DNA of 59,200 nucleotides from a virus. The DNA lies in IMG/VR virus record IMGVR_UViG_3300025018_002313. The stretch is one strand, 5' to 3'. The notes beneath the pieces were generated by a model, which was not told the DNA's origin, did no database searches, and saw only the letters and a program-made list of their open reading frames with translations. Of the stretch, positions 12,940 through 49,419 are shown piece by piece (within the stretch, counting starts at the first letter, position 1; each line of letters starts with the position of its first letter). A program made the translations under genes and the position numbers.

Positions 12940-13132
12940 TATTCTCTTCCTCTCTCAATGCAACAATTTTCTCTTTTAGTTTCTGATTCTTCTTGATCAT
13001 AATTAGCGAAGATGTAACCAGATTCGAACCTGATGCCTTTCCATTCTCATAGACTATTCTGCCACTAAAATATACATCTTCTCGGAACCAACTTCACCTA
13101 GGATTCATCAGCTCCTTCTTCTAATACCTTAC

Positions 13133-32983: not shown

Positions 32984-34028
32984 CAAAGAACAAATCGCCT
33001 GCTTTAGTGATATTCATATTGGTGTGCATCAAGCAAGCTCAATGTGGCATACTATATCACTTAATTACGCCAGATGGTTACGCGATGTACTAAAAGAGAG
33101 AGGCATAAAAGATATAGTTATACCTGGCGATGTACTTGATGATCGTAATGAAATAGCAGTAACAACTCTACATTATTTACCGCAATTCTTCAGAATATTT
33201 GAAGAGTTTAATATTATCATTGTTGTTGGTAATCACGATTGTTACTACAGTAAAAGATCCGATGTACATTCACTAGAAACTCTTGATGAATGGCCGAATA
33301 TTACCGTAATCGACTCCTTGACAACAGTTACACTCCACGAGAAGGTAATTTCGTTCTGTCCATGGCATACCCCTATAGAAGATATACCCCAGAGTGACAT
33401 CATCTTTGGTCATTTCGACATTCAGTCATTCAAAATGGCAGGGTATAAAGTAAACGAGCACGGTGTTCGATCTGCTGATCTATTGAATAAAGCTAGTTTA
33501 ATAGTAACTGGACATTACCACCTAACACAAGATCGCGTGTATAAGAACGGTAAAATTTTGTATCTTGGATCTCCTTATCAGCTAAACTGGGGCGAAGCAG
33601 AAACACCAAAAGGAGTCTATATCATTGATATAGATACAAACGACACATCATTCATAACAAATGATGTTTCACCTAAGCATAAGAAGATATTACTATCTGA
33701 ACTATTAGCAATCGGCAAACTTACCAAAGAAATACAAGATGAGTTTAATGGTAATATTATTAAGTTTGTTGTTGATGTTGATGCAAGCCAGCGTACAATT
33801 GATGAGTTAGTAAAGAAGTTTTATCTTCTCAAGCCGTTGGAACTAAAAATAGAGTATGAGTATACTCAACGATTTGATTTAGAAGACCACGAAATGGAGT
33901 TTCAAGGTGTTGATGTTAGAAGCGATATGACCGAGTTCGTAAAAACACTTGAAGGTATTGAAATTAAGGAGGAAGTGATTAATTACTTAATAGATATCTA
34001 TGAGAGAGCAGAGGTATTAGTAACATGA
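32952..34028 (+). CDS. gp47: Mre11/SbcD-like recombination nuclease, T4 gp47 family
   Basis: 358 aa with calcineurin-like phosphoesterase motifs (DIHIG, GDVLDD, VVGNHD, GHFD/GHYH). Confidence 0.7.
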   Translation: MIQRKIIVKFNKEQIACFSDIHIGVHQASSMWHTISLNYARWLRDVLKERGIKDIVIPGDVLDDRNEIAVTTLHYLPQFFRIFEEFNIIIVVGNHDCYYSKRSDVHSLETLDEWPNITVIDSLTTVTLHEKVISFCPWHTPIEDIPQSDIIFGHFDIQSFKMAGYKVNEHGVRSADLLNKASLIVTGHYHLTQDRVYKNGKILYLGSPYQLNWGEAETPKGVYIIDIDTNDTSFITNDVSPKHKKILLSELLAIGKLTKEIQDEFNGNIIKFVVDVDASQRTIDELVKKFYLLKPLELKIEYEYTQRFDLEDHEMEFQGVDVRSDMTEFVKTLEGIEIKEEVINYLIDIYERAEVLVT

Positions 34029-34076: not shown

Positions 34077-34334
34077 ATGAATTGGAATGAATATTTTGAA
34101 GACGTAGATATAGATTTTACATACCAATATAAAACTGGGCTAGTTACATTAATAGTTGATCCTGTCACATTTGACATGACAGCAGCGGAAGCGCGAGTAA
34201 CTGTTTTCGACAGTCTATCAGGAGTAGAAGATTTCGTCAAGCAACACGAACATTATCTATATTATAACTGTACGCATAATAAGAAATATAATACCTACGG
34301 GTACGGTACTTCTACGAGAATAACACCCCAGTAG
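34077..34334 (+). CDS. Hypothetical small protein
   Basis: 85 aa ORF between gp47 and the glycan island. Confidence 0.25.
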   Translation: MNWNEYFEDVDIDFTYQYKTGLVTLIVDPVTFDMTAAEARVTVFDSLSGVEDFVKQHEHYLYYNCTHNKKYNTYGYGTSTRITPQ

Positions 34335-34385: not shown

Positions 34386-35231
34386 ATGAAAAATAAAATA
34401 GGACTAGGAATAGTTACATATAATAAAGAAGATAGACTAAAACAAAGTGGCGCAACAGTACCAGTCGATGCAGTAGATTCGTTCGTTGTTGTTAATGACG
34501 GCACACCGTACTCTGAATACCCGGCAGATGCTGAAGTGATAATTCATCCACGTAACATGTGCGTCGGTGTCGCGAAGAATACCGCTATGCGTCACCTATT
34601 ACAAGCAGGATGTGATCATATTTTCTTAATGGAAGACGATATGCTTATTAAACGTCCAGATGTATTCGAAGCATATATTCACGCTGCCGAGAATAGCGGA
34701 ATATGGCATATGAACTATGCCCTACAAGGACCAGCAAACAGAAAGCAAGTAAATAATGGTCCAATGTATATTGATAAGAGACAAGAACTCGATCAGACAT
34801 CTGAACCAAATCCAAGAGCAACTATTGATTATGATGGTATAGATGTATCGTTCTATCCTAACTCAGTCGGATCGTTTTCTTACTACTTAAAAGGAGTTAT
34901 TAAAACAGTTGGATATCATGATGAACAATTTAAGAATGCCTGGGAGCATGTAGAACATACATATAGAGTTATTAAGGCAGGGTTACATCCTCCTTTCTGG
35001 TGGTTTGCAGATATTGCCAATAGTTACGAATATCTTACAGACATCCCTAACTGTATAGAGGAAAGTACGATCGCGCATACCCCTGAATGGATACAAAATT
35101 TTCAAAAAGGCATGGCTTGGTTTAAGAGTAAGCATGGATATGTACCACAACAAATACCAGATACAGATGCAAACCAAGTAATACAAACACTTGATCAAAT
35201 AAAGAGCAGTTATGCACGTAAAGTTCTGTAA
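34386..35231 (+). CDS. Glycosyltransferase-like protein (GT-A / GT2-like)
   Basis: 281 aa. N-terminal IGLGIVTYNKEDRL and an acidic DxD-type motif (LMEDDML), typical of GT2 enzymes. Confidence 0.4.
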   Translation: MKNKIGLGIVTYNKEDRLKQSGATVPVDAVDSFVVVNDGTPYSEYPADAEVIIHPRNMCVGVAKNTAMRHLLQAGCDHIFLMEDDMLIKRPDVFEAYIHAAENSGIWHMNYALQGPANRKQVNNGPMYIDKRQELDQTSEPNPRATIDYDGIDVSFYPNSVGSFSYYLKGVIKTVGYHDEQFKNAWEHVEHTYRVIKAGLHPPFWWFADIANSYEYLTDIPNCIEESTIAHTPEWIQNFQKGMAWFKSKHGYVPQQIPDTDANQVIQTLDQIKSSYARKVL

Positions 35232-35605
35232 CGGGTCCGTTATGAATATCAATGTAGCTAATACTAGAATTAATACTGAACCAAAAAAACTGATGAACGG
35301 CTGGTCCATTAAGGTAGATATAGAAACTTATGATTCTTGTACTCCTAGTTTGATAACGATGCCCGACAAAAAAATAAAGCGCGTATTTCGTCTATGCAAA
35401 GGATTAATATGAAAAATCAAAAAACAGAATTTGATGGTGGATTACCGAAGATATGTATTCCTATGATGCGTCGCACATTCCCAGAATTAATAACTAATGA
35501 GATCGTTGGTGTACAACCAATGAGCGGCTTTAATTCTAAGATAAAATCTCAGAGGAGTATCAGAGAGAAAATAAAGAGAATTATTAACAATTTGAGAGGA
35601 TTAAT

Positions 35606-36136
35606 ATGACAACTTTAGTTAAGACATTTGATGAGATGAAAGAGATGTTCAACCAGCAGATTGAAGATAATAAAGTCAGATACTACGAAAAGACAGGACT
35701 AGCATGTATACGTGAAGCGATATCTGGAGAGGTAGAGACTACAAACGTTGCAAAGGAAGGTGATTATGTTATTAGGTCCGTTGGAATAAACAGAGAACAA
35801 TATATTGTATCAAAAAAGAAAATCGAAAATAGATACGAATTATTAAGTGATGATATAGATGAAGACGGATTTAAAACATATAAAGCTACAGGGCGTATAT
35901 TCGGATTTCAATATACTGGTATAGTTACATTCAGATTTAAAGCATCCTGGGGAGAACTTATGCTTGTAAACGATGGTGATTATATTTGTACGCCAGATAC
36001 AAACACCTACGATGATCGTCTACCAAAAGTACTTATTCCGATGGTTCATCATAAGATACGCGAGTTAATCACAAACGGAACTGATATATATCGAATAGAA
36101 CAAAACGAATTTAAGCGTAGCTATAAGGAGATATAA
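35606..36136 (+). CDS. Hypothetical protein
   Basis: 176 aa. Preceded by two small overlapping ORFs (35212..35412 and 35394..35609) that may be real small genes. Confidence 0.3.
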   Translation: MTTLVKTFDEMKEMFNQQIEDNKVRYYEKTGLACIREAISGEVETTNVAKEGDYVIRSVGINREQYIVSKKKIENRYELLSDDIDEDGFKTYKATGRIFGFQYTGIVTFRFKASWGELMLVNDGDYICTPDTNTYDDRLPKVLIPMVHHKIRELITNGTDIYRIEQNEFKRSYKEI

Positions 36137-36915
36137 TGCGTATCGGACTTTTAATGCCTGCTAGAGAGAGACTAAATTTAAACCTAACGTTTATCTCCTC
36201 TATTATCACAACAGTTGAGAATATCGAAAACGTTACTCTATACATGGGGATTGACGATGATGATCCAACTCGTGATATTCAGATGAAAATTGCTAATGCA
36301 ATTCCATTTGTTAAGTTCGTACCTATTCATAATGAAGGTAAATTTATTGGCTTAGGTAAAATGTGGAATATTCTTGCTGCAGAGTGTAAAGAAGAGATCT
36401 TTGGATATGTTGGTAACGACATGATCTTTCGAACACCTAATTGGGATAGAAAGATTATAGACAAGTTCGAAAAGGAATGTCCAAAGGATAACATAATGCT
36501 GTATCATTGCAATGACGGGCATAGAGGGCCTGAATTATGTGTTAATGCTTTTGTACACAGAAAATATATGGAGATAGTAGGATATTTCATTCGTGATGAA
36601 TTTCTAATCAATTGGTCTGATCAATGGATGCACCAGATTTTCGATTCTTTCGGTCGGTTAGAATATATACCAGATATACTAATTGAACATAATCATTGGA
36701 TATTCGGCGGCCGTGAGCGAGATACAACCGCCAACAGAATGCTCAGTGATAACCATGATAGAGTTAGCGATAATATGTGGACTAAGTTAGGACCAGAGAG
36801 AGACGCTGAAGCTAAACAACTTAGTAGATATCTAAAAATATCCCCAGATTGGAGTAAAATTGAAAACAAATCTAGAGACATTGGCGAGAGAAACTTTAAT
36901 ACATACACCTGGTAA
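36136..36915 (+). CDS. Hypothetical protein, possibly a nucleotide-sugar transferase
   Basis: 259 aa with an acidic MGIDDDDPT motif. Confidence 0.25.
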   Translation: MRIGLLMPARERLNLNLTFISSIITTVENIENVTLYMGIDDDDPTRDIQMKIANAIPFVKFVPIHNEGKFIGLGKMWNILAAECKEEIFGYVGNDMIFRTPNWDRKIIDKFEKECPKDNIMLYHCNDGHRGPELCVNAFVHRKYMEIVGYFIRDEFLINWSDQWMHQIFDSFGRLEYIPDILIEHNHWIFGGRERDTTANRMLSDNHDRVSDNMWTKLGPERDAEAKQLSRYLKISPDWSKIENKSRDIGERNFNTYTW

Positions 36916-37116
36916 TATAGTAGAGATCGGAGGAGGGTAGGTAATGCTACTGTTGGATTTTTACGTGTTGCTAGAGAGTTAGATAGGACGGTTATTGTTA
37001 TTGATCCTTTTGAAGAAGCGTTAGACAAAACACCGCCATCGTACATTAAACCTTATACAAAAACTCAATTTCTTAAAAATACCGACAACTATAAAGAGCA
37101 TCTTCATTTATGTCAA

Positions 37117-37401
37117 ATGTTTTCTGCTGACCCAAAAGTGTATGATGAACTATTAAATTATACGCCAATCTCATTTGCGTTTGTAGATGGGCTACAGTTT
37201 AAAGATAGTGTGTTATCCGATTTAGCTTTAATGACTAGACTAAACGTGCCAGTTATTTGTGTTGATGATTTTACGAGAAATACAGATATAAGTCAAGTAC
37301 CTGAAGCAACAATTGAGTTTTTGAAGCAAGGTAAGTATACAGTGCAGGAGACGTTTGATAGAGGAGCAGGGCGTGTAGTAGGAGTGTTTAAAATAAAATG
37401 A
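37117..37401 (+). CDS. Hypothetical protein
   Basis: 94 aa ORF. Confidence 0.25.
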   Translation: MFSADPKVYDELLNYTPISFAFVDGLQFKDSVLSDLALMTRLNVPVICVDDFTRNTDISQVPEATIEFLKQGKYTVQETFDRGAGRVVGVFKIK

Positions 37402-38705
37402 AATTATCAATTCTAATTTGTAGTTTGGAGGATCGTCTGGTACAGTTGCAACAACTGAGAACTAAGTTAATAGACCAGAGCGATATGGATGTAGTAGAGA
37501 TATTGACCGAGACAGATGCCGGTGAAATGCACACAGGAGCAAAGAGAAATAAACTACTACTACAGGCAAAAGGAGATTACATCGCATTTGTTGATGATGA
37601 TGATATGGTATCGGATGATTATGTCTCAAAAATACTTAAAGCAATTGAAACAAATCCTGATTGTTGTGGACTAGAAGGTATTATAACAACAGATGGAAAC
37701 AACCCACACTTATTCATACACTCGCTAACTTGCGGTAGCTGGTACGAGAAGGACGGAATATACTATCGTACACCTAATCATCTAAACACAGTAAAGCGGG
37801 AAATTGCACTAAAAGTTATGTTTAATGATGATATGTCGAATTGTGAAGATAGAGACTATTCTCTACGGATACAACCTTACCTAAAAACTGAAGAATATAT
37901 AAAAGGTCCTATATACTTTTATAAATGTACTTCTGCACCAAAACAGTACAATAAACAACGAGTAAACAAATCAAAAGTAATACTTGTTAACTATGCGGAT
38001 AAACATTTTTATCACTCACAGAAGCATAATACAGAAACAGGAAAACAATTTGGTTTTAACGGTGCAGCTGAATGTAATTTGAACTCTCTTGATATAAATT
38101 TTCGAAATAAATTCGCACATATCCTCAATCAATCCAGAGGTGCAGGGTATTGGCTATGGAAACCGTATATAATATGCAAAGTACTTGAACAAGTCAACTA
38201 CGGTGATATCGTTTTTTATTGCGATTCAGGTGCTATATTTGAGAAAGATATAACACCATTAATTGATATATGTAGAGAAGATGATATAGTTCTTTTTCAT
38301 ATAGCACCGCACGGGGTGACTGAGCCACATACAAATGCAAAATGGACAAAAAGAGATGCATTTGTATTAATGGGGTGTGACGAAGAAAAGTATTACAATG
38401 CTAATCAATATCTAGGCGGCTTTCAAATATACAAAAAGACAGATAGAACAATGGTCTTTGTGAAGGAGATGCTCAAATACTCACAAGATGAAAGAATAAT
38501 TACTGATCTCCCAAATACTTGTAATTTACCAAATCTACCACAGTTTAGAGAACATAGACATGATACATCAGTTTTGAGCCTGATGGCTACAAAATACGGT
38601 ATAAAAGGACATAGGGATCCGTCCCAATTTGGTGATGATTTTCATCATATGTATCCGGATGACAAATATGATAGAATAATACTATCAACGAGAGACAGGC
38701 GATGA
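37398..38705 (+). CDS. Family-2-like glycosyltransferase
   Basis: 435 aa. N-terminal LSILICSLEDR...GAKRNKLLLQAKGDYIAFVDDDDMV, the GT2 signature with a DxD motif. Confidence 0.5.
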   Translation: MKLSILICSLEDRLVQLQQLRTKLIDQSDMDVVEILTETDAGEMHTGAKRNKLLLQAKGDYIAFVDDDDMVSDDYVSKILKAIETNPDCCGLEGIITTDGNNPHLFIHSLTCGSWYEKDGIYYRTPNHLNTVKREIALKVMFNDDMSNCEDRDYSLRIQPYLKTEEYIKGPIYFYKCTSAPKQYNKQRVNKSKVILVNYADKHFYHSQKHNTETGKQFGFNGAAECNLNSLDINFRNKFAHILNQSRGAGYWLWKPYIICKVLEQVNYGDIVFYCDSGAIFEKDITPLIDICREDDIVLFHIAPHGVTEPHTNAKWTKRDAFVLMGCDEEKYYNANQYLGGFQIYKKTDRTMVFVKEMLKYSQDERIITDLPNTCNLPNLPQFREHRHDTSVLSLMATKYGIKGHRDPSQFGDDFHHMYPDDKYDRIILSTRDRR

Positions 38706-39337
38706 GTGTTGTAAATACAGAATTAAAATATATATTCATTCATAATCCAAAGGTCGCCGGTACATCCATGGAGCAGATTGTCGGTGGATCTTCACACCAA
38801 ACGATACACGGATATTATACCCAAGGTATAAATTTGGAGGATTTTTATAAATGGATGTTTGTTAGAAACCCATATACAAGATTAATATCTGCATACAACC
38901 AGGCGAAAGCCGGCCCAACAATTTTTATAAATCGACATACCCAGAATAAAATGTCACTGGATGAGTTTAAAAATATAACTATAAACTTCACAACATTCGT
39001 CGCGAATATACACAAACTGTTTGACTTCAATTTGCAAAACTATAATGAGGAAATGTTCCATAAAAACCAACATATCATCATGGATCATATTGCACCTCAG
39101 TCTTACTTTTGTAATATTGACGGAAAAAATGTACTGGATTTTATAGGTAGGCTTGAATCTATCGATTGCGATTGGTTTTCACTTTGTCGTAAAATCGGAA
39201 TCATACAGACACTACCACAAATGAATATCGGTATATCCAGTAGTGTCACAAACTATTATCAATCACAAAGTACTATTGATATTGTAAACGAACTATACAA
39301 TACTGATTTTGAGCTTTTTGGATACAATAAATTATGA
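38702..39337 (+). CDS. Carbohydrate sulfotransferase-like protein (Sulfotransfer_2-type)
   Basis: 211 aa. 5'-PSB-like IFIHNPKVAGTS and 3'-PB-like FVRNPYTRLISAY (RDPxxRxxSxY pattern). Confidence 0.5.
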   Translation: MSVVNTELKYIFIHNPKVAGTSMEQIVGGSSHQTIHGYYTQGINLEDFYKWMFVRNPYTRLISAYNQAKAGPTIFINRHTQNKMSLDEFKNITINFTTFVANIHKLFDFNLQNYNEEMFHKNQHIIMDHIAPQSYFCNIDGKNVLDFIGRLESIDCDWFSLCRKIGIIQTLPQMNIGISSSVTNYYQSQSTIDIVNELYNTDFELFGYNKL

Positions 39338-40149
39338 AACTTAACTTAGATAAAATTATTATAAGCACAAACGATGATCCAGATTTTTACAATTTCTGGG
39401 AACTAGCATACCGAGGATGGAAAGCATTCTTTCCGGAAATTGAAATGATACTCACGTTTATTACAAATCGATCGGAAGATGATACGATAGTAACCCATCT
39501 GCGTAGGTGGGGCACTGTTAAGCTATATAAAGAAATTCCTGGTATACCTACACCAAATCTCGCAAAAGTGTCTCGAATGATCGAAGCAACGAAGCACGGA
39601 GATGCTATTTGTATGGTGAATGACATAGATCTAGTACCACTTCAAAGAGAGTATGTAGTTGAACGGTTATCACATTTTGATCCTGATAAGCTATTAGGTA
39701 TCGGTACTCTGAATCATATCGGATTAAAAGATAAATTTCCGATGGGATATACAACAGCAGTAAGTAGCGTGTGGAATCGAATAGTTAATCCAAATAATCT
39801 CGGATATGAAGATCTTGTCAATAGTTGGCGGAATATTCAGCATTTTGATTTACAGGAAGCAGTAAATAATTTACCAGCGGACGGAGTCAATCCTAGAGGC
39901 TTCTCTGACGAGTCATTGTTGAGATATTTACGCTCTAGAGAGCCGTCTATCCTTAATCAGATAGAGCGTGGATTTGTGCCCCTACAAGATGGAGTGGATA
40001 GAGCAGCCTGGAGTAATCTAGATATAGATAGACTTAATAGAGGTGGTTACGTTGAAGCACATTTACTACGACCACTTACGAAATATATAAAAGAAATAAA
40101 TGTAATCGCAGATTACATAAAAAAGGTAGAGCGTGAAAAAAGTATTTAG
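39334..40149 (+). CDS. Hypothetical protein, possibly GT-A-like
   Basis: 271 aa with acidic STNDDPDF and MVNDIDLVPL motifs. Confidence 0.25.
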   Translation: MKLNLDKIIISTNDDPDFYNFWELAYRGWKAFFPEIEMILTFITNRSEDDTIVTHLRRWGTVKLYKEIPGIPTPNLAKVSRMIEATKHGDAICMVNDIDLVPLQREYVVERLSHFDPDKLLGIGTLNHIGLKDKFPMGYTTAVSSVWNRIVNPNNLGYEDLVNSWRNIQHFDLQEAVNNLPADGVNPRGFSDESLLRYLRSREPSILNQIERGFVPLQDGVDRAAWSNLDIDRLNRGGYVEAHLLRPLTKYIKEINVIADYIKKVEREKSI

Positions 40150-40696
40150 ATTTGATGATATTTGTATTAATAGTAAAATGACTGATGCGATATTGATGGC
40201 AGAAGAAATAAAAAAGCAAGTACAGAATGCAGAAGTTTGGTTCTGTGTTTCGCCGATGGTTCATACCATAGACGACCCTGATCCTGTGTCACAGCAGAGA
40301 ATATTTCCAAAGATATTTAACGCTCACAGTGATTATAGGATATTTTACACCATCAATAAATGCGGAGTGCCTGATTTTCCTGCATGGATAACCCGTGCAG
40401 GTCATGGACTCATTCACGTGGATCATCGATTACTTGAACACGCGGCTCAAGAATTAAGTATTTTAACAAGCTGCAATCTGGTTAACGCCGATATATTTGT
40501 ACCACCGTTTAACAAGTGGAACAAAATCACCGAGCGGATTTGTCAGGAGAATGACATACATTTAGTGAAATTTGAGGACGGCTGGTTAAGTGCAGAACAT
40601 AACGAATATAACATGAAACACGATAAATGGTATTTACATCATAGAGCGTTTACAGTAGCAGAATTTAAAGAATGGTTGGAGGTAAAACATGGATAA
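40133..40696 (+). CDS. Possible polysaccharide deacetylase-like (NodB / CE4-like) protein
   Basis: 187 aa. FRFDDIC resembles NodB motif TFDDG; HGLIHVDH resembles the H-x-x-x-H metal motif. Weak. Confidence 0.25.
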   Translation: MKKVFRFDDICINSKMTDAILMAEEIKKQVQNAEVWFCVSPMVHTIDDPDPVSQQRIFPKIFNAHSDYRIFYTINKCGVPDFPAWITRAGHGLIHVDHRLLEHAAQELSILTSCNLVNADIFVPPFNKWNKITERICQENDIHLVKFEDGWLSAEHNEYNMKHDKWYLHHRAFTVAEFKEWLEVKHG

Positions 40697-41168
40697 ACAA
40701 TTTGGTGGAAGCGGTATTACAAAAGAAGTATTTGACTGGATTACTGATAACATTTCAGTTGGAAAAGTAATAGTCGAACTAGGTGCAGGAGACGTTAGTA
40801 CAAAATATCTATCTGAACGATATGAATTATACTCTGTTGAAGATGTACCGAAATTTTGCGGTAAATGGGCAAGTACATACATTCACGCGCCATTGGTTGA
40901 TGGGTGGTATGATATAAACATACTAAAGGAAGGTCTACCAGAAAGATTCAGCCTGTTGCTTATTGACGGTCCGGTCAAATTTTCAGACTTCCGTCCTGGT
41001 GTAGGAGATAGATTAAAAATTCTTGATCACCTGGATTTATTTGACAAAGACGCTATCATCATTGTTGATGATACAAATAGACCGGCGGAGAGAAATCTAC
41101 TAGATGCACTAGCACAAAAAACCGGTAAAAAGAAAACAGTATTCTCGTCCTTTGGAGTGCTACAGTGA
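40689..41168 (+). CDS. Possible class I SAM-dependent methyltransferase
   Basis: 159 aa with a VIVELGAGDVSTKYL Gly-rich motif-I-like segment. Confidence 0.3.
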   Translation: MDKQFGGSGITKEVFDWITDNISVGKVIVELGAGDVSTKYLSERYELYSVEDVPKFCGKWASTYIHAPLVDGWYDINILKEGLPERFSLLLIDGPVKFSDFRPGVGDRLKILDHLDLFDKDAIIIVDDTNRPAERNLLDALAQKTGKKKTVFSSFGVLQ

Positions 41169-41713
41169 TAGTCGCAATACATCAACCTAATTTCTTTCCT
41201 TGGTATCCATTCTTTAAAAAGATGGATCAGGCAGATGTGTTTGTTATTCTTACGCATTGTCAATTCGAAAAAAATAATTACCAAAATAGATTTCATTATA
41301 ATGATAAATGGTATACGTTGAGTGTAAATAAAGGACTTGAACCTATCCATCAAAAAGTATATGTTCGACCAAATGATGATTGGGTTAAGATTAAAAGTAA
41401 TCTTAAACAGTTTCCACTTGATCAATTTGATGATGATATTGACGCATCATTATGGGCAACTAATGAAAAAATTATTTCTCGAATAAAAAGTATCCTCGAT
41501 ATTAAAACTACTATTAAACTCGACTATCCAACTGAATTAAATAAATCAGAGCGCTTAGTTGATATATGCAAGCAACACAATGCAACACAATACCTTGCTG
41601 GTAGAGGTGCAAAGAACTATATGGATATAGAACCATTTGAAAGAGCCGGTATTGAAGTAATCTATCAAGAAGTTGACGAAAAAGATATGGTACCTATTAT
41701 AACGAAATTATGA
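41165..41713 (+). CDS. WbqC-like family protein (O-antigen / glycan biosynthesis associated)
   Basis: 182 aa. MIVAIHQPNFFPWYPFFKKMDQADVFVILTHCQFEKNNYQNR matches the WbqC-family N-terminal signature HQP.y.Pw...f.K...D.fv.LD.vqf.k...nRn. Confidence 0.5.
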   Translation: MIVAIHQPNFFPWYPFFKKMDQADVFVILTHCQFEKNNYQNRFHYNDKWYTLSVNKGLEPIHQKVYVRPNDDWVKIKSNLKQFPLDQFDDDIDASLWATNEKIISRIKSILDIKTTIKLDYPTELNKSERLVDICKQHNATQYLAGRGAKNYMDIEPFERAGIEVIYQEVDEKDMVPIITKL

Positions 41714-42450
41714 ATAACAAACTATTACACAACAAGCAATTTTTAAACTTTATCGGATCAGATTGGGGCGGACTCTATGTTGATTTGAAGTTGATTGAAC
41801 AAGATAGTACAGTAATATCAGCAGGTCTTGGTAGTGATGTATCGTTTGATTTAGCTTTGATGGAACTTAAGAACTGTACTGTTATTGGCATCGATCCAAC
41901 ACAAACTGCTAGAGATACAGTATTCGAGACAGCAGATGGGAATCCATTATTTGCAAAGAACTTTCGGTATGTGCAGAGAGCGCTGCTCGATGTGTCTGAC
42001 AGAGAAATTACTCTAGGTGGACCAGCCGTAACATTTATATCTCCTCACGGGGAACACGCAAGGACAGTATGTCTGAACGATGTATATGATAAGATCGACA
42101 GAGAAAAAGTATCTTTCCTAAAACTCGATATTGAAGCGGCAGAATATCCCGTTATTCAGAGTTTTACTCCGTTACCATCGATGGCACAAATAGGTATAAG
42201 CTTCCACCACTGGCTAAACGGACCTACGGATCAGTATCCAAATCCCGGAGCCACCTGCCCCTACACCCTAGATGATACAGTTGCATGTATTGAAAAGATA
42301 AAGAGCTTTGGATATAAATTGGTGCATATAGATAATGCAGACCCACTACGATATTTTCAAGAGGTTTTATTCATACGCTCTGACCTTGCAGAGAAATACA
42401 AAGACTTAACGTTTGAATATGAAGGTAATAATATAAAGAAGAACAAATGA
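41710..42450 (+). CDS. FkbM-family-like methyltransferase
   Basis: 246 aa with VISAGLGSDVSFDLAL...VIGIDP, the pattern seen in FkbM-domain methyltransferases. Confidence 0.35.
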   Translation: MNNKLLHNKQFLNFIGSDWGGLYVDLKLIEQDSTVISAGLGSDVSFDLALMELKNCTVIGIDPTQTARDTVFETADGNPLFAKNFRYVQRALLDVSDREITLGGPAVTFISPHGEHARTVCLNDVYDKIDREKVSFLKLDIEAAEYPVIQSFTPLPSMAQIGISFHHWLNGPTDQYPNPGATCPYTLDDTVACIEKIKSFGYKLVHIDNADPLRYFQEVLFIRSDLAEKYKDLTFEYEGNNIKKNK

Positions 42451-42611
42451 CGGATGAAAGATATAGCAAACTACTAAATTTGCATGAGAGACTAAAAGAA
42501 GTAAAGAGTATGAAGAAATCTGCAGCTAAAGACTATAGAGATCAAATTAAAGAAATTGAAGAAGAAATTGAAGGATTGGTCGAAGACATAAGAGAACAAC
42601 CAGAAAAGTAA
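42447..42611 (+). CDS. Small coiled-coil protein (54 aa)
   Basis: Manual translation MTDERYSKLLNLHERLKEVKSMKKSAAKDYRDQIKEIEEEIEGLVEDIREQPEK. Its ATG overlaps the upstream stop (ATGA). Below the length cutoff of the ORF track. Confidence 0.3.
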   Translation: MTDERYSKLLNLHERLKEVKSMKKSAAKDYRDQIKEIEEEIEGLVEDIREQPEK

Positions 42612-42620
42612 TTAGGTATG

Positions 42621-42648
42621 TTGCAAAATATGGTATCGATCGTATAAT
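42621..42648 (+). promoter_or_regulatory. Sigma70-like promoter (TTGCAA, 16-nt spacer, TATAAT) directly upstream of the guaC-like gene
   Basis: ttgcaa at 42621..42626 and tataat at 42643..42648. The ATG at 42655 is only 6 nt downstream, which implies a leaderless or very short-leader mRNA. Confidence 0.3.
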
Positions 42649-42654
42649 TTAATT

Positions 42655-43671
42655 ATGAAAGCAAGAACATTCTCAGACGTAACGATTATACCGAAATTTA
42701 CATGTGTCGGTCGCAATGGTAGTTTAGCTACAAGACTCTGCAACGGGGAAGATTCACTTGAACTCCCTATTATCTCCGCCAATATGCCTGCGATTGCAAA
42801 TGCAGAAGTATGCGATGCAATGAGGTATGGCGGAGGTATGGGTATTCTGCATCGTTTTAATGAAGTGAATGAAGCAGTGGAAGAATATAACCATGCATCA
42901 TTTGGTGGAAAGTCTATTGTAGGTGTGTCGTTAGGTGTAAAAAATGATGATACCTACAATAGATTCGAGAAACTATATGAAGCAGGCGCGAGAGTGTTTT
43001 GTATTGATGTAGCTCACGGACATCAAGATAAAGTTCACTCACTACTAAAATGGATCAATAATCAAATATTCCAATGGGCTAGAAGTGAAAGAAATAAGGT
43101 GACTCTTATTGCCGGTAATGTTGCTACTGCTGATGCTGTAATAGCATTAGGTGAATGGGGAGCAGATATTGTTAAAGTTGGAATTGGTCCCGGTAGTGCT
43201 TGCACTACAAGACTTGATACCGGAGTAGGTGTCCCACAATTGTATGCTCTCGAGCAGGCACACAATGCAGTAATGCAGCAGAAAGTACCAGTTAAAATCA
43301 TCTCCGATGGTGGATGTAAATGTACAGGTGATATTGCAAAAGCCTTAAAATATGCGGATGCTGTTATGGTAGGCTTTATGCTAGCAGGTACAACTGAAAC
43401 TCCCGGTGAGTATATTAACGTTGGCGGTAAGCAGATGAAAGTATATTTTGGCTCAGCAAGTTTTAAGAATAAAGGTGAAAAGAAGCATATAGAAGGTAGA
43501 GATTTTCTAGTTGAAAAGAAGGGATCCATTAGTGATGTTCTTGATAAGATTAGAGACGGGCTACATTCATCACTGGGATATGTTGGAGCAAGTAATTTAC
43601 AACAATTTAAAAACAATTGTGAGTTCTTAGATATAACTGCTGGAGGTAAAGCAGAAAGCAAATATGAGTAA
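42655..43671 (+). CDS. guaC: GMP reductase (IMPDH/GMPR family, GuaC type without CBS domains)
   Basis: 338 aa. CIDVAHG, GADIVKVGIGPGSACTTR, SDGGCKCTGDIAKA and YVGAS match E. coli GuaC CIDVANG, GADIVKVGIGPGSVCTTR, SDGGCTTPGDVAKA and YVGAS. The catalytic Cys is present. Confidence 0.8.
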   Translation: MKARTFSDVTIIPKFTCVGRNGSLATRLCNGEDSLELPIISANMPAIANAEVCDAMRYGGGMGILHRFNEVNEAVEEYNHASFGGKSIVGVSLGVKNDDTYNRFEKLYEAGARVFCIDVAHGHQDKVHSLLKWINNQIFQWARSERNKVTLIAGNVATADAVIALGEWGADIVKVGIGPGSACTTRLDTGVGVPQLYALEQAHNAVMQQKVPVKIISDGGCKCTGDIAKALKYADAVMVGFMLAGTTETPGEYINVGGKQMKVYFGSASFKNKGEKKHIEGRDFLVEKKGSISDVLDKIRDGLHSSLGYVGASNLQQFKNNCEFLDITAGGKAESKYE

Positions 43672-44617
43672 AATTTTAGTTACAGGTGGTTGCGGGTTTA
43701 TCGGTAGTAACTACGTCGATTATAAGTTACTAACAGATTCAAGCATAGAAATTATTTGTGTCGATACATTGGATATTGGTGGATCAGAGGATAATGTTTC
43801 TGAGTGGTCTAGAAATAGTGGACGATACAAAATGTATAATACTGATATTTGTGATGCAGATGAAATGAGTAAAATTTTTGCATATGAAATGCCAGATATT
43901 GTTGTAAATTTCGCAGCACAAACTCATGTTGATCGAAGTCTCATCGACAGAACATATTTCGCAACAACAAATGTAGTCGGTACGCAAGTAATATTGGATC
44001 AAATAATTAAGTATAAAACAAAGCGCTTTGTGCAAGTATCTACAGACGAAGTGTATGGCAGTATCGATAGCGGTCTATTCGAAGAGACATTTATGCTTCA
44101 TCCAAATAATCCATACTCTGCTACTAAAGCTGGCGCTGAGATGCTTGTACAGGCCGCAGTTCATTCATTTGGAGTTAATGCTTCTATTACAAGAAGTTGC
44201 AACAATTACGGTCCGAGACAATACCATGAAAAACTAATACCAATGGTTATTCATAATGCTCTTAAAGGTCTTCCTGTTAAAGTCTTTAATGATGGGCTAT
44301 CAATAAGAGAATGGATATATGTTCTCGACAATGTAATCGGAATTGACACAGTGGTCGAAAAAGGCAGGAGAGGTGAGGTATATAATATCGGTTCAGGTAT
44401 CGAACTTCAGAATATTGATGTAGTTACCACTGTATTAGATATTCTAGGTAAACCTCATAGTCTAATCGAATATACAAATGATCGTGCAAATGATGATCGT
44501 AGATACGCACTTAACTGTTCGAAGATATTTACTCACCTAGAATGGCGATCAAAAGTAAATTGGAAAGAAGGCATCAACCAAACGGTTGAATGGTATCTGG
44601 CAAACAAATATGAATAA
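43664..44617 (+). CDS. rmlB: dTDP-glucose 4,6-dehydratase (RmlB / RfbB, SDR family)
   Basis: 317 aa. ILVTGGCGFIGSNYV Rossmann motif, YSATK catalytic motif, and the characteristic RfbB length. Confidence 0.7.
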   Translation: MSKILVTGGCGFIGSNYVDYKLLTDSSIEIICVDTLDIGGSEDNVSEWSRNSGRYKMYNTDICDADEMSKIFAYEMPDIVVNFAAQTHVDRSLIDRTYFATTNVVGTQVILDQIIKYKTKRFVQVSTDEVYGSIDSGLFEETFMLHPNNPYSATKAGAEMLVQAAVHSFGVNASITRSCNNYGPRQYHEKLIPMVIHNALKGLPVKVFNDGLSIREWIYVLDNVIGIDTVVEKGRRGEVYNIGSGIELQNIDVVTTVLDILGKPHSLIEYTNDRANDDRRYALNCSKIFTHLEWRSKVNWKEGINQTVEWYLANKYE

Positions 44618-45416
44618 GAAAATTATAGTATTAGGTAACGGGCTACTCGGAGATGAATTCAAAAGACATGGATATACTGTCTGGGGATCAGGAGATCCGT
44701 TTTGTTACAAACACGGTGACGGTACGTACACTTATTGCTGGGAATCACTGGATCAATTTGATGTTATAATCAACTGTCTTGGTAAGACTGTAACTCGTTG
44801 GTGTGAATCTCCTTGCAATTATTCAGCTGCATTGTATGCGAATGGAACACTACCCGGACTTCTAAGCATTGGATGCAAAGAACACAATCAAAAATTCGTA
44901 CATATATCAACAGGCTGTCTATACGATATCTCAGATACACCACAAACTGAGGAAGATCATATTGTAGCACATTGCAACTATACAGTGACAAAATGGATGG
45001 GAGAACAAATATGTGCTCCATCCAGAGATCTTATTATTCGTCCAAGATTACTATATAATGATCAACCAACAGCGAAGAATTTACTAGGAAGACTTCCTAC
45101 GTTTTCCAAATTAGTCGGAAAATTAGATTCTATGACAAGTACGAACACTATAGTTGAAGCAGTTGAAGCTCTATTAAGCAACAACCAGGCTGGTATTTTT
45201 AATGTTGCAAATCGTGGCTATGTTTCTATGTATGAGGTCGGACAGATCATCGGATGTAGAGCTGAAAAAACAACGATAGAAGAAGTTCGAAAGGAAAGCC
45301 ATATTCATCTCGTTAATACTACAATGGACGTTTCAAAATTATTACAGTTTTATGATCCCGGTGATGTCCGTAGTGAAATTACAAGGTGTTGGAAAGCGAT
45401 GAATGAAGGAAGTTAA
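44586..45416 (+). CDS. dTDP-4-dehydrorhamnose reductase-like (RmlD-like) SDR
   Basis: 276 aa. IIVLGNGLLGDE, DVIINCLG, HISTGCLYD, YTVTKWMGE and IIRPRLLY parallel the RfbD motifs. Confidence 0.5.
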   Translation: MNGIWQTNMNKKIIVLGNGLLGDEFKRHGYTVWGSGDPFCYKHGDGTYTYCWESLDQFDVIINCLGKTVTRWCESPCNYSAALYANGTLPGLLSIGCKEHNQKFVHISTGCLYDISDTPQTEEDHIVAHCNYTVTKWMGEQICAPSRDLIIRPRLLYNDQPTAKNLLGRLPTFSKLVGKLDSMTSTNTIVEAVEALLSNNQAGIFNVANRGYVSMYEVGQIIGCRAEKTTIEEVRKESHIHLVNTTMDVSKLLQFYDPGDVRSEITRCWKAMNEGS

Positions 45417-47211
45417 GTTCCATAAACTCACAATTAAGAATTTCTTATCTATAGGTGACGAGCCAGTTATAATTGACTTCAAACAAGGTCTCAATATTAT
45501 AACAGGTGTTAATAAAGATAAAGAAGATAGTAAAAATGGTGTAGGTAAATCTACAATTGTAGATAGTATATCATTTGCTATTTTCGGCTCTACTATAAGA
45601 GATATTCGAATTGAAAATATTCCTAATTGGAAGACAAATAAAACCTGCGAAGTCTCAATAGAATTTACTGTCATTGATGACTATATAGAAAACAAGTATC
45701 GTATTAACCGTTCACTGGATCCATCTCGCGTTCAATTATATGAAAACGGAGATAACATCTCACGTACAGCGGCAAAGACAAATAGTAAACTCAAAAAAAT
45801 ACTAGGAACAACACCAGAGTTATTTGAGCAAAGTACTACAATGAGCATCAATCAGACAGAGCCGTTCTTAAAAAAGCGACCAGGGGTTAAGAGAAAGTTC
45901 ATTGAAGGGATCTTTAAGCTAACAGTCTTTAGTGAGATGCTAGGAATTATTCGACATGATCTAAGCGAGACAAAACGAAAATTTCATCTTGAAAAAACTA
46001 AGCTTGAGGAGATTCAAAAGTCATTAATATTGTATAAAAAGCAACAAACCGAGCACGCCAACCGCCGCAGAGACAGAATTCAAGAGCTTGAACAACGCCG
46101 GTTAGATAGTGCAAAAGAAATTAAAGAACTAAAGAATCAATTATTAGAGAGTAATGAGCCGAAAAAATTACAACTAGAGAAGAAGATTGAAACTCTCCAT
46201 AAAAAAGAGCAAGAATATGAAGCACAGATCCGTGAATCATTACAGGTAAATACAGCTGCACAGACGAGTATTTTAACGCTTCGTGAGAAAATACAAGAAA
46301 TAAATGATGTTGGTGATACTATTTGTATTACATGCAAGCGCCCATTCGAACAGAGTGATAAAGACCGATTCTTAAAACAAAAACAAGAGTATGTCGGTAG
46401 CATACAAGATCTAAACGAACAAATAGATACAATAACAAAAGAGCAAAAACAGATCGAAAATTTAAGAGCATTATGTAAAAGTGAGAGTCAAAGTATCATC
46501 CACCAAATCCATCAACTGGATATTCTTGAAACAGAAGCTGAAAATATAAAACAGCGAATTCTTCAGCGAGGTCAATGGATTAAGCAAATCGAAGTTGATA
46601 TAAATAGTCTACAAACAGAAAAAGACACTTATATAGACATTATCCAAGACACAACAAAGAGAATCAATGCGCTAACTTCTAAACAAGGAGAATTCGAACA
46701 ACTATTGGAAGTTCTAGATATATCAAAATTTGTTGTATCTGAAGAAGGTGTCAGAAGCTTTATTGTTAAAAAGATGCTAAAAATGCTCAATACGAGACTA
46801 AATTATTATTTGAAAAAGTTAGACGCTAATTGTATTTGTACGTTTGATGAGTATTTTGAAGAATCCATTTTTAACCAAAAAGGAAGACTCTGTTCGTATG
46901 CAAACTTCTCAGACGGAGAACGAAAAAGAATCGATCTAGCTATGCTATTTACGTTTCTTGATATTAGAAGACTACAATCTAATATATCAGTTAACTTCTC
47001 TTTTTATGATGAACTACTCGATTCATCACTGGATTCAAAAGGAATTGAATGTGTGCTTGAAATTCTCAAAGACCGCATAAATCAATATGGTGAAGCTGTT
47101 TATATTATAAGCCATAAAAACGAGGCTATTAAACACGCAACCGGTGAAATAATTTACCTGGAAAAACAAAACGAGGTAACAAGGAGATTAGAATATGGGA
47201 CTACAGTTTAA
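45403..47211 (+). CDS. gp46: Rad50/SbcC-like recombination ATPase, T4 gp46 family
   Basis: 602 aa. N-terminal Walker A (GVNKDKEDSKNGVGKST), a long central coiled-coil and a C-terminal signature/Walker B region (FSDGERKRIDLA...FYDE). Confidence 0.7.
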   Translation: MKEVKFHKLTIKNFLSIGDEPVIIDFKQGLNIITGVNKDKEDSKNGVGKSTIVDSISFAIFGSTIRDIRIENIPNWKTNKTCEVSIEFTVIDDYIENKYRINRSLDPSRVQLYENGDNISRTAAKTNSKLKKILGTTPELFEQSTTMSINQTEPFLKKRPGVKRKFIEGIFKLTVFSEMLGIIRHDLSETKRKFHLEKTKLEEIQKSLILYKKQQTEHANRRRDRIQELEQRRLDSAKEIKELKNQLLESNEPKKLQLEKKIETLHKKEQEYEAQIRESLQVNTAAQTSILTLREKIQEINDVGDTICITCKRPFEQSDKDRFLKQKQEYVGSIQDLNEQIDTITKEQKQIENLRALCKSESQSIIHQIHQLDILETEAENIKQRILQRGQWIKQIEVDINSLQTEKDTYIDIIQDTTKRINALTSKQGEFEQLLEVLDISKFVVSEEGVRSFIVKKMLKMLNTRLNYYLKKLDANCICTFDEYFEESIFNQKGRLCSYANFSDGERKRIDLAMLFTFLDIRRLQSNISVNFSFYDELLDSSLDSKGIECVLEILKDRINQYGEAVYIISHKNEAIKHATGEIIYLEKQNEVTRRLEYGTTV

Positions 47212-48535
47212 AGATTTAAATATACCACAAATGGGTAATGCCCAACCTGCGCCTGCGCAGCAATACACACCAACTGCACAGACCATTAATAATATCGGGA
47301 TGCCGGCCGGTATGCCACTCGGGATGCCTAATGCCGCTGTAGCAACTCAGCCAATAATAACCCAACAGAAATTACCACCACCTCAGATGCCAGGGGAAGG
47401 GTTAAAGCGTGCAGTTAACTATTATGCAGACTATGCTGGATGTGGTTGGTGGAGAATGATTCAACCTGAAACTCTACTCAATATGGAACAGAAAGCAATT
47501 ATTAATGGGTTAACTACTATGGTAGTTGATCCAAGATTCTATTTCGGAATTGAAGCAGTTAGACTACAACGTCAGGCAACTCCGGTTCAACTAGAATTTG
47601 TAAAATTCTTGAAAGCAGGATCTGCTGAACACGGGTTTAAAGTCATCTACGAGATAGATGATATCATATTTAAGGACGACATTCCTGATTTTAATCGCTG
47701 TAAGACTGCATTCGAAGATGATAGTATTCTCGCAAGCTCCATCGAGATGATGAGATTATGCGATGAAATTAGTGTTACCTGTCAATTTATGAAGGAATAT
47801 TATATCGACAAAACCGGTAATAAAAATATAACCGTTCTACCTAATTATCCATCGAGAATGTGGATGGACGGTCATTATGATCCAGTACGTTTGATGGAAA
47901 ATTATACGAAATATAAAAATAGACCTCGCGTTGCATATATCGGTTCAGGTACTCATATTGATGTAGGAAATAGAACCAATCAAAAAGATGACTTTGAACA
48001 TATTGTACAACACATTATCAAAACTCGTGATATATTCAAATGGGTATTTGTTGGTTGCTTCCCATTACCGTGCAAGCCATTTATCGACAGAGGTGAAATG
48101 GAATTTATCAGTTGGTTCCCGCTGAAGAATCTTGCAAAAGCATATACATCTATAAACTGTCAAGCAGTATATGCTCCCCTACAGGATTGTTCTTTTAATC
48201 GCGCTAAGAGTAATATTAAATATCTCGAATCTGCGTGCTGTGGTATCCCGGGTGTTTTCCAGAATATGATAACATATAAAGATGCACCTTTACGATTCGG
48301 GACAGGTGCGGAATTTATTGATCAAATAAAGGCTCTGCTTAAGGACGAGCAGACATACGAAAAATATAGCATAGCTGCCAGAGCATATGCTGATACGATG
48401 TGGCTAGATGATCATCTTGATGAGTTTGCAGAATTATACTTTACACGCATCGGAACACCTAATCGCAAAGCTCTTCTAAGATTGAATCCAGACCAAGCGA
48501 CAGCTGTAACATACGAGAATAACTTACTAAAATGA
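47195..48535 (+). CDS. GT-B-fold glycosyltransferase-like protein with a P/Q/M-rich disordered N terminus
   Basis: 446 aa. The C-terminal KYLESACCGIPGV resembles the GT4/GT-B donor-binding E-x7-E region. The first 80 aa are low complexity (MPAGMPLGMPNAA...). Confidence 0.35.
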   Translation: MGLQFKDLNIPQMGNAQPAPAQQYTPTAQTINNIGMPAGMPLGMPNAAVATQPIITQQKLPPPQMPGEGLKRAVNYYADYAGCGWWRMIQPETLLNMEQKAIINGLTTMVVDPRFYFGIEAVRLQRQATPVQLEFVKFLKAGSAEHGFKVIYEIDDIIFKDDIPDFNRCKTAFEDDSILASSIEMMRLCDEISVTCQFMKEYYIDKTGNKNITVLPNYPSRMWMDGHYDPVRLMENYTKYKNRPRVAYIGSGTHIDVGNRTNQKDDFEHIVQHIIKTRDIFKWVFVGCFPLPCKPFIDRGEMEFISWFPLKNLAKAYTSINCQAVYAPLQDCSFNRAKSNIKYLESACCGIPGVFQNMITYKDAPLRFGTGAEFIDQIKALLKDEQTYEKYSIAARAYADTMWLDDHLDEFAELYFTRIGTPNRKALLRLNPDQATAVTYENNLLK

Positions 48536-49419
48536 TAACACACATACAATTTAAGCATGGATATGCTCTAAAACTCCCATGCGTACAAGATAGAGTTTTT
48601 AAATTTACACCAGGAATTAATATCCTATTTGGACCAAATGGTTGTGGTAAATCAACTATTATAAAAACACTAAAGGCATATTGCGGTATTCAAAAGGGTG
48701 GATGGACGCAAATAAACGATCCAACTGCTATAGGAACAACTTCAACCTCTCTTGGATTTCCAATGGCGTATGCAAAATTTGCACCAGGGGAATGTTATGC
48801 AAGTGTCGGGTGGACAGGTAATCCGACATTTTTTAACGACGGAGATATAAAAGTTAGTGAGACATTCTTCTTTCAAAATGTCGGTCAATCAGAAGACGGA
48901 ATAACAACAGAGAGAGAACAAATGGAAGCATTGATGAAAAAGCCTTCATCTGGTCAATATCGAATTGATAGACTTAATAAAGTTCTTAATCTTATAACTA
49001 CACCACCTGTAGTAGAAAATATACCTGATAGAATATCACGAGCAGGTAATCAATCATTCGCTGAAAGAGAGAAACAGTATTGGCATTCTCTAGGGCAAAC
49101 TGGACCGCTAACTATTCTACTGGATGAGCCTGAGCGTTCGTTAAGTCTACCGAAACAGAAGCAGCTACTTTGTGAAGCTATCCCAAAACAAATGGGTAAC
49201 TTACAAGTTATAATTGCAACTCATAGTGTTTTTGCTTTAGAGATACCAGGAGTAAATATTATTGATATGGAACCTGGATATGTAAATGTATGCAAAGAAA
49301 TATTAAACTTTTCTAATACAGGGCAGAGTCAGTTGGAGATGCCATTAAATACTCCTTGTAGCGCGTGTGAAGAGTATAAAAGAAAACTGGAAAGAATTAC
49401 TGGTATTGTTCAATCATAA
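48532..49419 (+). CDS. ABC-type ATPase (AAA_15/AAA_21-like) with no fused effector domain
   Basis: 295 aa. Walker A GPNGCGKST and a late Walker B LLDEPERSLS, with an ABC-like long spacer between them. Confidence 0.45.
   Translation: MITHIQFKHGYALKLPCVQDRVFKFTPGINILFGPNGCGKSTIIKTLKAYCGIQKGGWTQINDPTAIGTTSTSLGFPMAYAKFAPGECYASVGWTGNPTFFNDGDIKVSETFFFQNVGQSEDGITTEREQMEALMKKPSSGQYRIDRLNKVLNLITTPPVVENIPDRISRAGNQSFAEREKQYWHSLGQTGPLTILLDEPERSLSLPKQKQLLCEAIPKQMGNLQVIIATHSVFALEIPGVNIIDMEPGYVNVCKEILNFSNTGQSQLEMPLNTPCSACEEYKRKLERITGIVQS

Follow-up and report, generated by a model that had tools for sequence, protein, structure and literature searches.

In this study, we analysed 59,200 nt of IMG/VR record IMGVR_UViG_3300025018_002313 (hereafter the window), a stretch of an uncultured 236-kb T4-like phage, and showed that its recombination-nuclease genes gp47 and gp46 stand 11,374 bp apart with glycan genes packed between them, as an earlier sequence-only reading had proposed. 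The space between the two genes is a hot spot at which a hypervariable glycan cassette resides in some relatives, and the island found here is best explained as an accessory, horizontally exchanged glycan-synthesis cassette at a site of repeated insertion in an uncultured clade of roughly 200–240-kb aquatic T4-like phages. About 18 open reading frames (ORFs) lie in the gap on the same strand, mostly overlapping or abutting, and profile searches placed nucleotide-diphosphate (NDP)-sugar synthesis, several glycosyltransferases and tailoring enzymes together in this operon-like block (Table 1). The island start given earlier, position 34386, is that of the first glycosyltransferase gene and not the boundary of gp47, which ends at 34028. 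Tentatively, the glycan may be built on a phage-made acceptor, most likely a virion protein.

Metagenomes were scanned with a gp47 profile and 80 loci were mapped. The two genes were adjacent in 58 of them, separated by one gene in 7 and by a multi-kb insertion in 8, while the other 7 were uninformative. The one-gene gaps measure about 0.8 kb, and a distant GT-A glycosyltransferase resembling the first gene of the island (GT#1) was detected in five of the seven; all eight multi-kb insertions begin with a GT#1 homolog (34–47% identity). Searched against Pfam, the 72 ORFs of these insertions encode mainly glycan machinery, in a set that differs by lineage: GT2 (8 counts), GT25 (6), GT10 fucosyltransferase (5), Methyltransf_24 (4) and RXYLT1_C (4), with further GT47, GT61, GT7C, sugar nucleotidyltransferases (NTP_transferase), UDP-GlcNAc 2-epimerase, FkbM and class II ribonucleotide reductase (RNR). 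In the IMG/VR relative L011 (54% gp47 identity), for example, the gap holds GT#1, two Methyltransf_24 genes, a GT2, a short-chain dehydrogenase/reductase (SDR) and a class II RNR. The suggestion that the gap might be a variable hot spot was therefore confirmed across the 80 loci. As separate observations, the class II (B12-dependent) RNR occupies 16865–19957 in L011 and occurs in the same gap in L019 and L020, and an intein-splicing Pfam match was obtained in L011 and in 2 of the 72 ORFs scanned from the relatives.

The island has also diverged as a mosaic. Compared with the relative whose gp47 is 95% identical in amino acids (L010, together with L001; the value is 30–54% for L011, L003 and L014), the flanks were 85–95% identical in amino acids and 80–85% in nucleotides; the centre of the island was 44–76% and 68–72% identical, respectively, or could not be aligned. 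Four segments of the window are missing from L010/L001, while L010 gains an extra methyltransferase and a second GT8-like copy (the copies are 56–58% identical in amino acids). A related cassette was found at 6963–13700 of an unrelated 190.8-kb phage which carries DnaB and a PolA with an intein (L017, logan SRR14194069_1244), in the order FkbM, one unassigned gene, the family of the island protein starting at 40133 (the 40133 family), MT12, WbqC, GT8-like, MT24, Glyco_trans_1_2 and two copies of a 240-aa domain. Its WbqC, 40133-family and GT8-like proteins are 52%, 39% and 35% identical to those of the island, respectively, and the 240-aa domain is shared as well, which indicates that the glycan module has probably been exchanged from phage to phage. 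A similar gene set stands beside RNR genes on WLWF01000027 (L100, assembly GCA_012267705.1), and the 40133 family occurs with WbqC and sugar-modifying genes in both L017 and L100; on WLWF01000043 (L084), apparently of the same assembly by its accession prefix, gp47 and gp46 are adjacent. Because of the mosaic divergence, the cassette in L017 and the gene set in L100 as against the adjacency in L084, the island is regarded as accessory, mobile and fast-changing.

The island holds at least four soluble GT-A enzymes, which exceeds the at least two GT2-type glycosyltransferases expected at the outset and was established from PHROG, Pfam and AlphaFold2 (AF2)/Foldseek results. The second enzyme, GT#2, gave no Pfam or NCBIfam match beside its PHROG match and is 87% identical in L010. 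The third is a fusion of a GT2 domain with the 240-aa domain, an unannotated family of 4,935 cluster representatives at E ≤ 1e-3; its profile search gave no PDB match, and a Pfam scan of 32 members gave one weak GT34 match. For the fourth, no annotation was obtained at the sequence level, including a profile-based PDB search of its family, and its AF2 model matched 3tzt, glycogenin and LgtC in Foldseek at E 1e-7 to 1e-5; D97xD99 is invariant across the 26 clusters of the family. Single-sequence PDB searches with GT#1, GT#2, the 435-aa fusion, the proteins starting at 39334, 40133, 35606 and 40689, and the GT-B glycosyltransferase downstream of gp46 gave nothing useful.

Among the tailoring enzymes, the sulfotransferase, predicted to depend on 3′-phosphoadenosine 5′-phosphosulfate (PAPS), scored 71.4 bits against a Sulfotransfer_2 gathering threshold of 22 bits and carries both PAPS-binding motifs, PKVAGTS at the 5′-phosphosulfate-binding site (5′-PSB) and RNPYTRLIS at the 3′-phosphate-binding site (3′-PB), in agreement with its first assignment. 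The protein is only 44% identical in L010, while exactly the same protein was found on 16 contigs from several samples. Such a gene is nearly unheard of in phages, since one homolog, that of Ralstonia phage phiRSL1, was found among 50,697 phage records. The WbqC-like protein proposed earlier was recovered with PF08889; WbqC proteins are typical of O-antigen clusters, and a literature search on their biochemistry found nothing usable. As for the two methyltransferase-like proteins, the FkbM-like one stood on a borderline Pfam score (TIGR01444 was below its cutoff; 87% identity in L010), while the other, recognized from its motif by eye, gave no HMM or PDB match and has two copies in L010 (67% and 43% identity). 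The 187-aa 40133 protein had been called NodB-like, which we did not confirm: there was no Polysacc_deac_1/CE4 match in HMM or PDB-sequence searches and no Pfam, PHROG or PDB-sequence match of any other kind, and none of its homologs carries a Pfam domain.

A further methyltransferase segment, passed over in the sequence-only reading, is a frameshifted Methyltransf_24-like remnant. Its frame +1 ends with ...GNIVEIGGG*, and a −1 shift leads on to VGNATVGF...FAFVDG...VICVDD. The one-base frameshift lies at a GGAGGAGGG run, and two independent assemblies (L004, L005) agree on both the shift and the GGG run, while the whole segment is absent from L010. Programmed frameshifting was considered and is unlikely, since a slippery heptamer is lacking and the close relative does not carry the segment.

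For sugar-nucleotide synthesis, the proposed rmlB was verified, just above the TIGR01181 equivalog cutoff, and the gene directly abuts gp46 in L001 and L002. The neighbouring SDR had been likened to dTDP-4-dehydrorhamnose reductase; its RmlD_sub_bind domain was confirmed (42 vs 27 bits) together with GxGxxG and YxxxK motifs, whereas the score for the rmlD equivalog TIGR01214 was far below cutoff (47 vs 224 bits), and the gene is cleanly absent from L001. As anticipated, neither RmlA (NTP_transferase) nor RmlC (dTDP_sugar_isom/cupin) was matched among the window ORFs scanned. The gene upstream of rmlB, also overlooked before, encodes an enzyme of the inosine-monophosphate dehydrogenase (IMPDH)/GMP-reductase family which scored below all equivalog cutoffs (GMP reductase PRK05458, 226 bits vs cutoff 344) and is 87% identical in L001. 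It is a gene of nucleotide metabolism, not of glycan synthesis, and may have its own promoter, a promoter-like TTGCAA-16-TATAAT being present at 42621–42648 in front of it.

These domain assignments support the earlier prediction of a 6-deoxyhexose-containing glycan decorated with sulfate and methyl groups. From the enzymes present, we infer the sugar and the order of steps as follows. dTDP-glucose and PAPS would come from the host; RmlB would convert dTDP-glucose to dTDP-4-keto-6-deoxyglucose, and the RmlD-like SDR would reduce the 4-keto intermediate, giving a sugar of the D-quinovose or D-fucose type without RmlC, or L-rhamnose if the host supplied RmlC. Four or five soluble GT-A enzymes would then join the sugars into a short heteroglycan on a pre-existing acceptor in the cytoplasm, the methyltransferases and the sulfotransferase would add methyl and sulfate, and WbqC and the 40133 protein would also take part in tailoring. 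The GT-B enzyme encoded after gp46 could be the invariant enzyme that initiates the chain, and the island a swappable module that extends it.

Cytoplasmic assembly on a pre-existing acceptor is proposed because membrane, flippase and initiating enzymes were not found. No transmembrane (TM) segment was predicted in any island ORF, and the stretch from uvsY to uvsX contains a single marginal TM window, in an AAA ATPase outside the island. In profile scans, no domain of an initiating phosphoglycosyltransferase, flippase, polymerase, ligase or ABC exporter was present among the window ORFs, so that the membrane, export and initiating parts of a Wzx/Wzy- or ABC-transporter-type O-antigen or capsule locus are missing. 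Virus-encoded virion glycosylation in the cytoplasm has precedents in chloroviruses, Megavirinae and mycobacteriophages (PMC12619734; PMC12801897, Freeman et al. 2023), and the genes that mark it, soluble virus-encoded glycosyltransferases together with sugar-nucleotide and tailoring enzymes, are all found here.

Several points weigh against a virion acceptor. The exact TATAAATA late-promoter motif was not found in the island, and the island lies in the early/middle-type 55-47-46-43 block, a position which fits roles directed at DNA or the host at least as well. GT25, GT8, GT10, WbqC and FkbM are typical of lipooligosaccharide (LOS) and O-antigen synthesis. The functional link between the core GT-B gene and the island is purely positional, and three ORFs and one domain of the island carry no assignment.

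The same points bear on a possible, if doubtful, alternative, namely that the host envelope is remodelled: the glycosyltransferases would extend or decorate the LOS/lipopolysaccharide (LPS) core or undecaprenyl-diphosphate (Und-PP)-linked intermediates at the cytoplasmic face, the products would be exported by host MsbA/Lpt or Wzx, and the altered receptors would block superinfection or the adsorption of progeny to debris. Across this island and the corresponding insertions of relatives, GT8/LgtC-like, GT25, GT10, GT2, WbqC, FkbM, Sulfotransfer_2 and RmlB are all families of LOS/O-antigen loci; LOS-type extension requires no phage membrane proteins, and the T4 superinfection gene imm lies in the same early/middle-type block, here without late promoters. 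A host-envelope role has been proposed for P-SSM2-type clusters (PMC7824862, PMC12801897), but it has never been experimentally shown for any T4-like phage cluster. In a virulent T4-like phage the turnover of the surface must moreover fit one latent period, no enzyme has a membrane-anchoring segment, and the conservation of the GT-B gene across marine and freshwater lineages argues for a phage-side acceptor if that gene is linked to the island.

The GT-B gene directly after gp46 was confirmed as such by its fold: the AF2 model matched BshA, HepE, MshA and PimB′ in Foldseek (E about 1e-9, TM-score 0.47–0.63), and the protein shows the two Rossmann folds and a C-terminal K...E pair with invariant K338 and E345, while the second Glu of the canonical EX7E motif was not seen in the sequence when read by eye. 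The disordered N terminus noted before was likewise recovered as about 65 low-confidence residues in the model, carrying the conserved short motifs MxLQFK, YQP, GxPxGxP and PPL. The gene proved to be a core gene of the clade and not cargo of the island as first assumed. It lies directly 3′ of gp46 in all 43 related loci with enough sequence, island-free ones included (L003 and L014, for example), and its conservation is about that of DNA polymerase; among 1,177 homologs the best 120 are 53–100% identical, and no cultured phage carries a full-length homolog. Since the GT-B protein is conserved across marine and freshwater lineages, a conserved acceptor is implied.

The sequence-only reading had preferred a DNA hypermodification, in which the island, perhaps with the GT-B enzyme acting first, would build a glycan on a hydroxylated base and thereby evade restriction; our results do not support this preference, and we consider such a role improbable. 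The island does lie in a replication/recombination block collinear with the T4 block that contains a-gt and b-gt; the comparison with T4 a-gt holds as an analogy, but in T4 that gene is located between 55 and 47 and does not split the 47-46 pair. The top structural matches of the GT-B protein, 3mbo (BshA) and 3c4q (MshA), are the entries given for the DNA arabinosyltransferases of RB69 and DLP3 (Table 1 of PMC13326640), but T4 glucosyltransferase structures are not among its 50 listed PDB matches, and an annotated DNA alpha-glucosyltransferase ranks 38th in a viral structure library. GT#1 weakly matched TAGT and phrog_842 (0.002), and the TAGT match was below cutoff (0.0027; 18.1 vs 27.5 bits). 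The phiRSL1 sulfotransferase homolog sits with an adenosine 5′-phosphosulfate (APS) kinase, three glycosyltransferases and two sugar nucleotidyltransferases beside a thymidylate-synthase-family gene, and rapid diversification would suit an arms race with type IV restriction. Known hypermodification pathways, however, are usually clustered with a base-hydroxylating enzyme (10.1101/2023.12.21.572611). None was detected here, nor was any ThyA-family, TET/JBP, C5-methyltransferase, dCTPase or tRNA-guanine transglycosylase (TGT) gene, in the window or the 10 kb scanned beyond either end (about 80 kb in total); tblastn with T4 gp42, gp56, a-gt and b-gt over 1.2 Mb of related loci found none. With T4 gp42, tblastn matched phiRSL1 ORF230 only, and with a-gt and b-gt nothing. 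Four to five glycosyltransferases with methyl and sulfate tailoring, and up to about ten including fucosyltransferases in relatives, also exceed any known DNA glycan, and deazaguanine genes are already present in this phage as a set of their own. It is very improbable, in our judgement, that the GT-B protein is a DNA glycosyltransferase which its N-terminal motifs bring to the replisome or its vicinity in a widespread uncultured clade of aquatic T4-like phages, with the island extending the first sugar to a lineage-specific methylated and sulfated DNA glycan; if it were so, this would be the first sulfated DNA hypermodification, with the phiRSL1 cluster as a second example.

That the products are soluble small-molecule glycosides, or that the island is a decaying, neutral remnant of horizontal transfer without a coherent pathway, is also unlikely. 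BshA and MshA, which the GT-B protein resembles, glycosylate small molecules; one methyltransferase is frameshifted; the rmlD-like gene and several ORFs were gained or lost between close relatives; and the gap contains non-glycan genes (IMPDH-like here and class II RNR in relatives). On the other hand, most ORFs are intact, tightly packed and 44–94% identical in amino acids in a relative, the exact sulfotransferase recurs across contigs and samples, and lineages that have diverged carry, independently of one another, glycan cargo at this one site.

Among known loci, the glycan or 'LPS' islands found in T4-like cyanomyoviruses come closest, and their target is likewise unproven. The clusters of P-SSM2, S-SCSM1 and S-SCSM2R also belong to large T4-like aquatic phages, combine glycosyltransferases of several families with NDP-sugar dehydratases or epimerases (PMC7824862, PMC12801897) and are polymorphic between related phages; a T4-like core context, multi-family glycosyltransferases and presence/absence polymorphism were all found here. 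In contrast to them, the present island belongs to a different lineage, occupies the gp47-gp46 site and lacks a nucleotidyltransferase of its own, and tblastn with Sulfotransfer_2 and WbqC matched no cyanophage record. Islands of this kind are already known, and what is new is the uncultured lineage, the fixed site with empty, one-gene and multi-gene states, the sulfotransferase with WbqC, and the core GT-B neighbour.

With the virion glycosylation systems of mycobacteriophages, chlorovirus PBCV-1 (A064R) and Megavirinae, the island shares soluble glycosyltransferases, methyltransferases, 6-deoxyhexose synthesis, a cytoplasmic setting and clade-specific gene sets. The GT2 fusion presumably recalls the multidomain A064R, to which no sequence or structural match was obtained, and we know of no counterpart of the sulfotransferase in these systems. 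Phage DNA glycosylation (T4 a-gt/b-gt, arabinosyl-5-hydroxycytosine (5hoC) in RB69/DLP3, and TET-associated systems) likewise has glycosyltransferases in the replication/recombination block and a GT4-like GT-B with the same best PDB neighbours, which are generic GT4 ones (PMC13326640). It differs in that no base-hydroxylating enzyme was detected nearby here and in the many more glycosyltransferases and sulfo/methyl tailoring enzymes of the island.

In the jumbo myovirus phiRSL1 (NC_010811, L016), ORF231-238 include the sulfotransferase homolog (25% identity, E 2e-12 / 1e-17), flanked by several glycosyltransferases as in the island. The APS kinase, the two sugar nucleotidyltransferases and the ThyA-family gene are additions of phiRSL1, and no other island protein is common to both. 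As an observation on phiRSL1 itself, the thymidylate-synthase-family gene of ORF230-238 encodes 414 aa and matches T4 gp42 (E 3.6e-5); by its genes, ORF230-238 looks like a candidate cluster for a sulfated-glycan DNA hypermodification, and a literature search turned up nothing on DNA modification in this phage.

Costly sets of glycan genes recur in large aquatic T4-like phages, and the target has been shown for none. The present lineage offers a clean comparative system, with one insertion site, several states and a GT-B gene conserved like DNA polymerase; together, the sulfotransferase, the hot-spot series and this polymerase-level conservation make the question of the target of phage glycan islands more tractable. 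A glycan carried on the virion or on DNA would be the first sulfated example and would point to a phage "serotype" layer subject to diversifying selection; if the host surface is remodelled, the island would be a testable case for the long-standing hypothesis on cyanophage LPS clusters.

Table 1. Features of the gp47-gp46 island and of the surrounding T4-type replication/recombination block (window positions)
Feature	Coordinates	Strand	Support or remark
uvsY	30242-30646	+	T4-type block
uvsW	30646-32259	+	T4-type block
gp55-like sigma factor	32210-32983	+	T4-type block
gp47, Mre11/SbcD-like nuclease subunit; left flank of island	32952-34028	+	Metallophos 2.8e-9
85-aa ORF, no family match	34077-34334	+	absent from close relative L010
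GT#1, soluble GT-A glycosyltransferase, proposed founder gene of island	34386-35231	+	phrog_2456 2e-29; phrog_1579 7e-19
66-aa ORF, no family match	35212-35412	+	45% identity in L010
71-aa ORF resembling N-terminal segment of T4-type major capsid protein gp23	35394-35609	+	residues 19-52
176-aa ORF	35606-36136	+	weak ADP-ribosyltransferase PHROG match, 0.0033
GT#2 glycosyltransferase	36136-36915	+	phrog_14945 1.9e-29
Frameshifted Methyltransf_24-like remnant (annotated 94-aa ORF 37117-37401 is its C-terminal part)	36848-37401	+	−1 shift
Two-domain enzyme: N-terminal GT2 (aa 1-190) and 240-aa C-terminal domain	37398-38705	+	PF00535 3.9e-9; phrog_14775 6.8e-32
Predicted PAPS-dependent carbohydrate sulfotransferase	38702-39337	+	Sulfotransfer_2 1.7e-19; phrog_3347 1e-19
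Fourth GT-A, GT8 (glycogenin/LgtC)-like fold	39334-40149	+	AF2 pLDDT 95.7
187-aa protein, unannotated family	40133-40696	+	607 homologs
Putative class I S-adenosylmethionine (SAM) methyltransferase, motif by eye	40689-41168	+	VELGAGDVS and IIVDD
WbqC-family protein	41165-41713	+	PF08889 4.6e-28
FkbM-like methyltransferase, borderline	41710-42450	+	PF05050 1e-4, 22.9 vs cutoff 22.7 bits
IMPDH/GMP-reductase-family enzyme	42655-43671	+	PF00478 1.3e-78
RmlB, dTDP-glucose 4,6-dehydratase	43664-44617	+	TIGR01181 371.1 vs cutoff 365.1 bits
RmlD-like SDR, candidate sugar 4-ketoreductase	44586-45416	+	RmlD_sub_bind 6.4e-11
gp46, Rad50/SbcC-like; right flank of island	45403-47211	+	SMC_N and AAA_23
GT4-like GT-B glycosyltransferase, 446 aa	47195-48535	+	phrog_7162 2e-18; AF2 pLDDT 87
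Family B DNA polymerase	49478-52060	+	T4-type block
uvsX	52504-53610	+	T4-type block
gp41	57037-58392	+	T4-type block

The source genome was assembled as 171.7-kb and 236.4-kb contigs in several samples. By profile searches, the plus strand at 30.2–58.4 kb of the window is a T4-type replication/recombination block with the order 55-47-46-43-uvsX-41 collinear with T4, while the phage is only a remote relative of T4, its gp46 sharing about 27% identity with the cyanophage protein. When the 15.7-kb region was compared by megablast with the 50,697 phage records, no match was obtained, and therefore no cultured close relative is recognized. We also weighed the 'moraphage' jumbo lineage (PMC12619734) as a possible source clade and rejected it, because those phages are not T4-like. 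A scan of the island for sigma-70 promoters and terminators gave counts not above those of shuffled sequence.

Among the small ORFs of the gap, the 71-aa one matched Pfam Gp23 at 2.9e-8 and phrog_138 at 1.7e-7 and is 45% identical in L010; it is not a copy of a capsid gene of the window, in which it had no match, the real gp23 being outside the window. The 176-aa ORF has no counterpart in L010. Between the GT-B and DNA polymerase genes, an AAA_21/AAA_23 ATPase (AbiEii-like P-loop) is encoded at 48532–49419 (+). It occurs in L001 and, in part, in L020, but not in L002, L003 or most relatives, and is for that reason taken as another accessory insertion.

A scattered 7-deazaguanine gene set comprises QueC (13133–13873, −), Formyl_trans_N (54697–55257, +), AAA_28 (55270–55920, +) and a two-domain QueF (55922–57037, +), with GTP cyclohydrolase I just beyond the window (14251–14910 of L102). 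No TGT/DpdA domain was detected for it in the window or the 10 kb on either side. The set suggests a preQ1-type, possibly formylated, DNA modification, and the IMPDH-like enzyme may feed the guanine nucleotide pool for this pathway. A 289-aa ORF at 53849–54718 gave a weak DUF6610 match.

On the minus strand, exact TATAAATA motifs were found 6–77 bp upstream of five ORF starts (3006, 5140, 6440, 10122 and 15343), and these sites are consistent with T4-type late promoters. The five ORFs, the portal gene among them, lie in the structural-side region (window 1–30158), which includes portal and gp15. The same region also encodes a SegE-like GIY-YIG homing endonuclease, an RNA ligase, NADAR, DUF366 and a PQ-loop protein.

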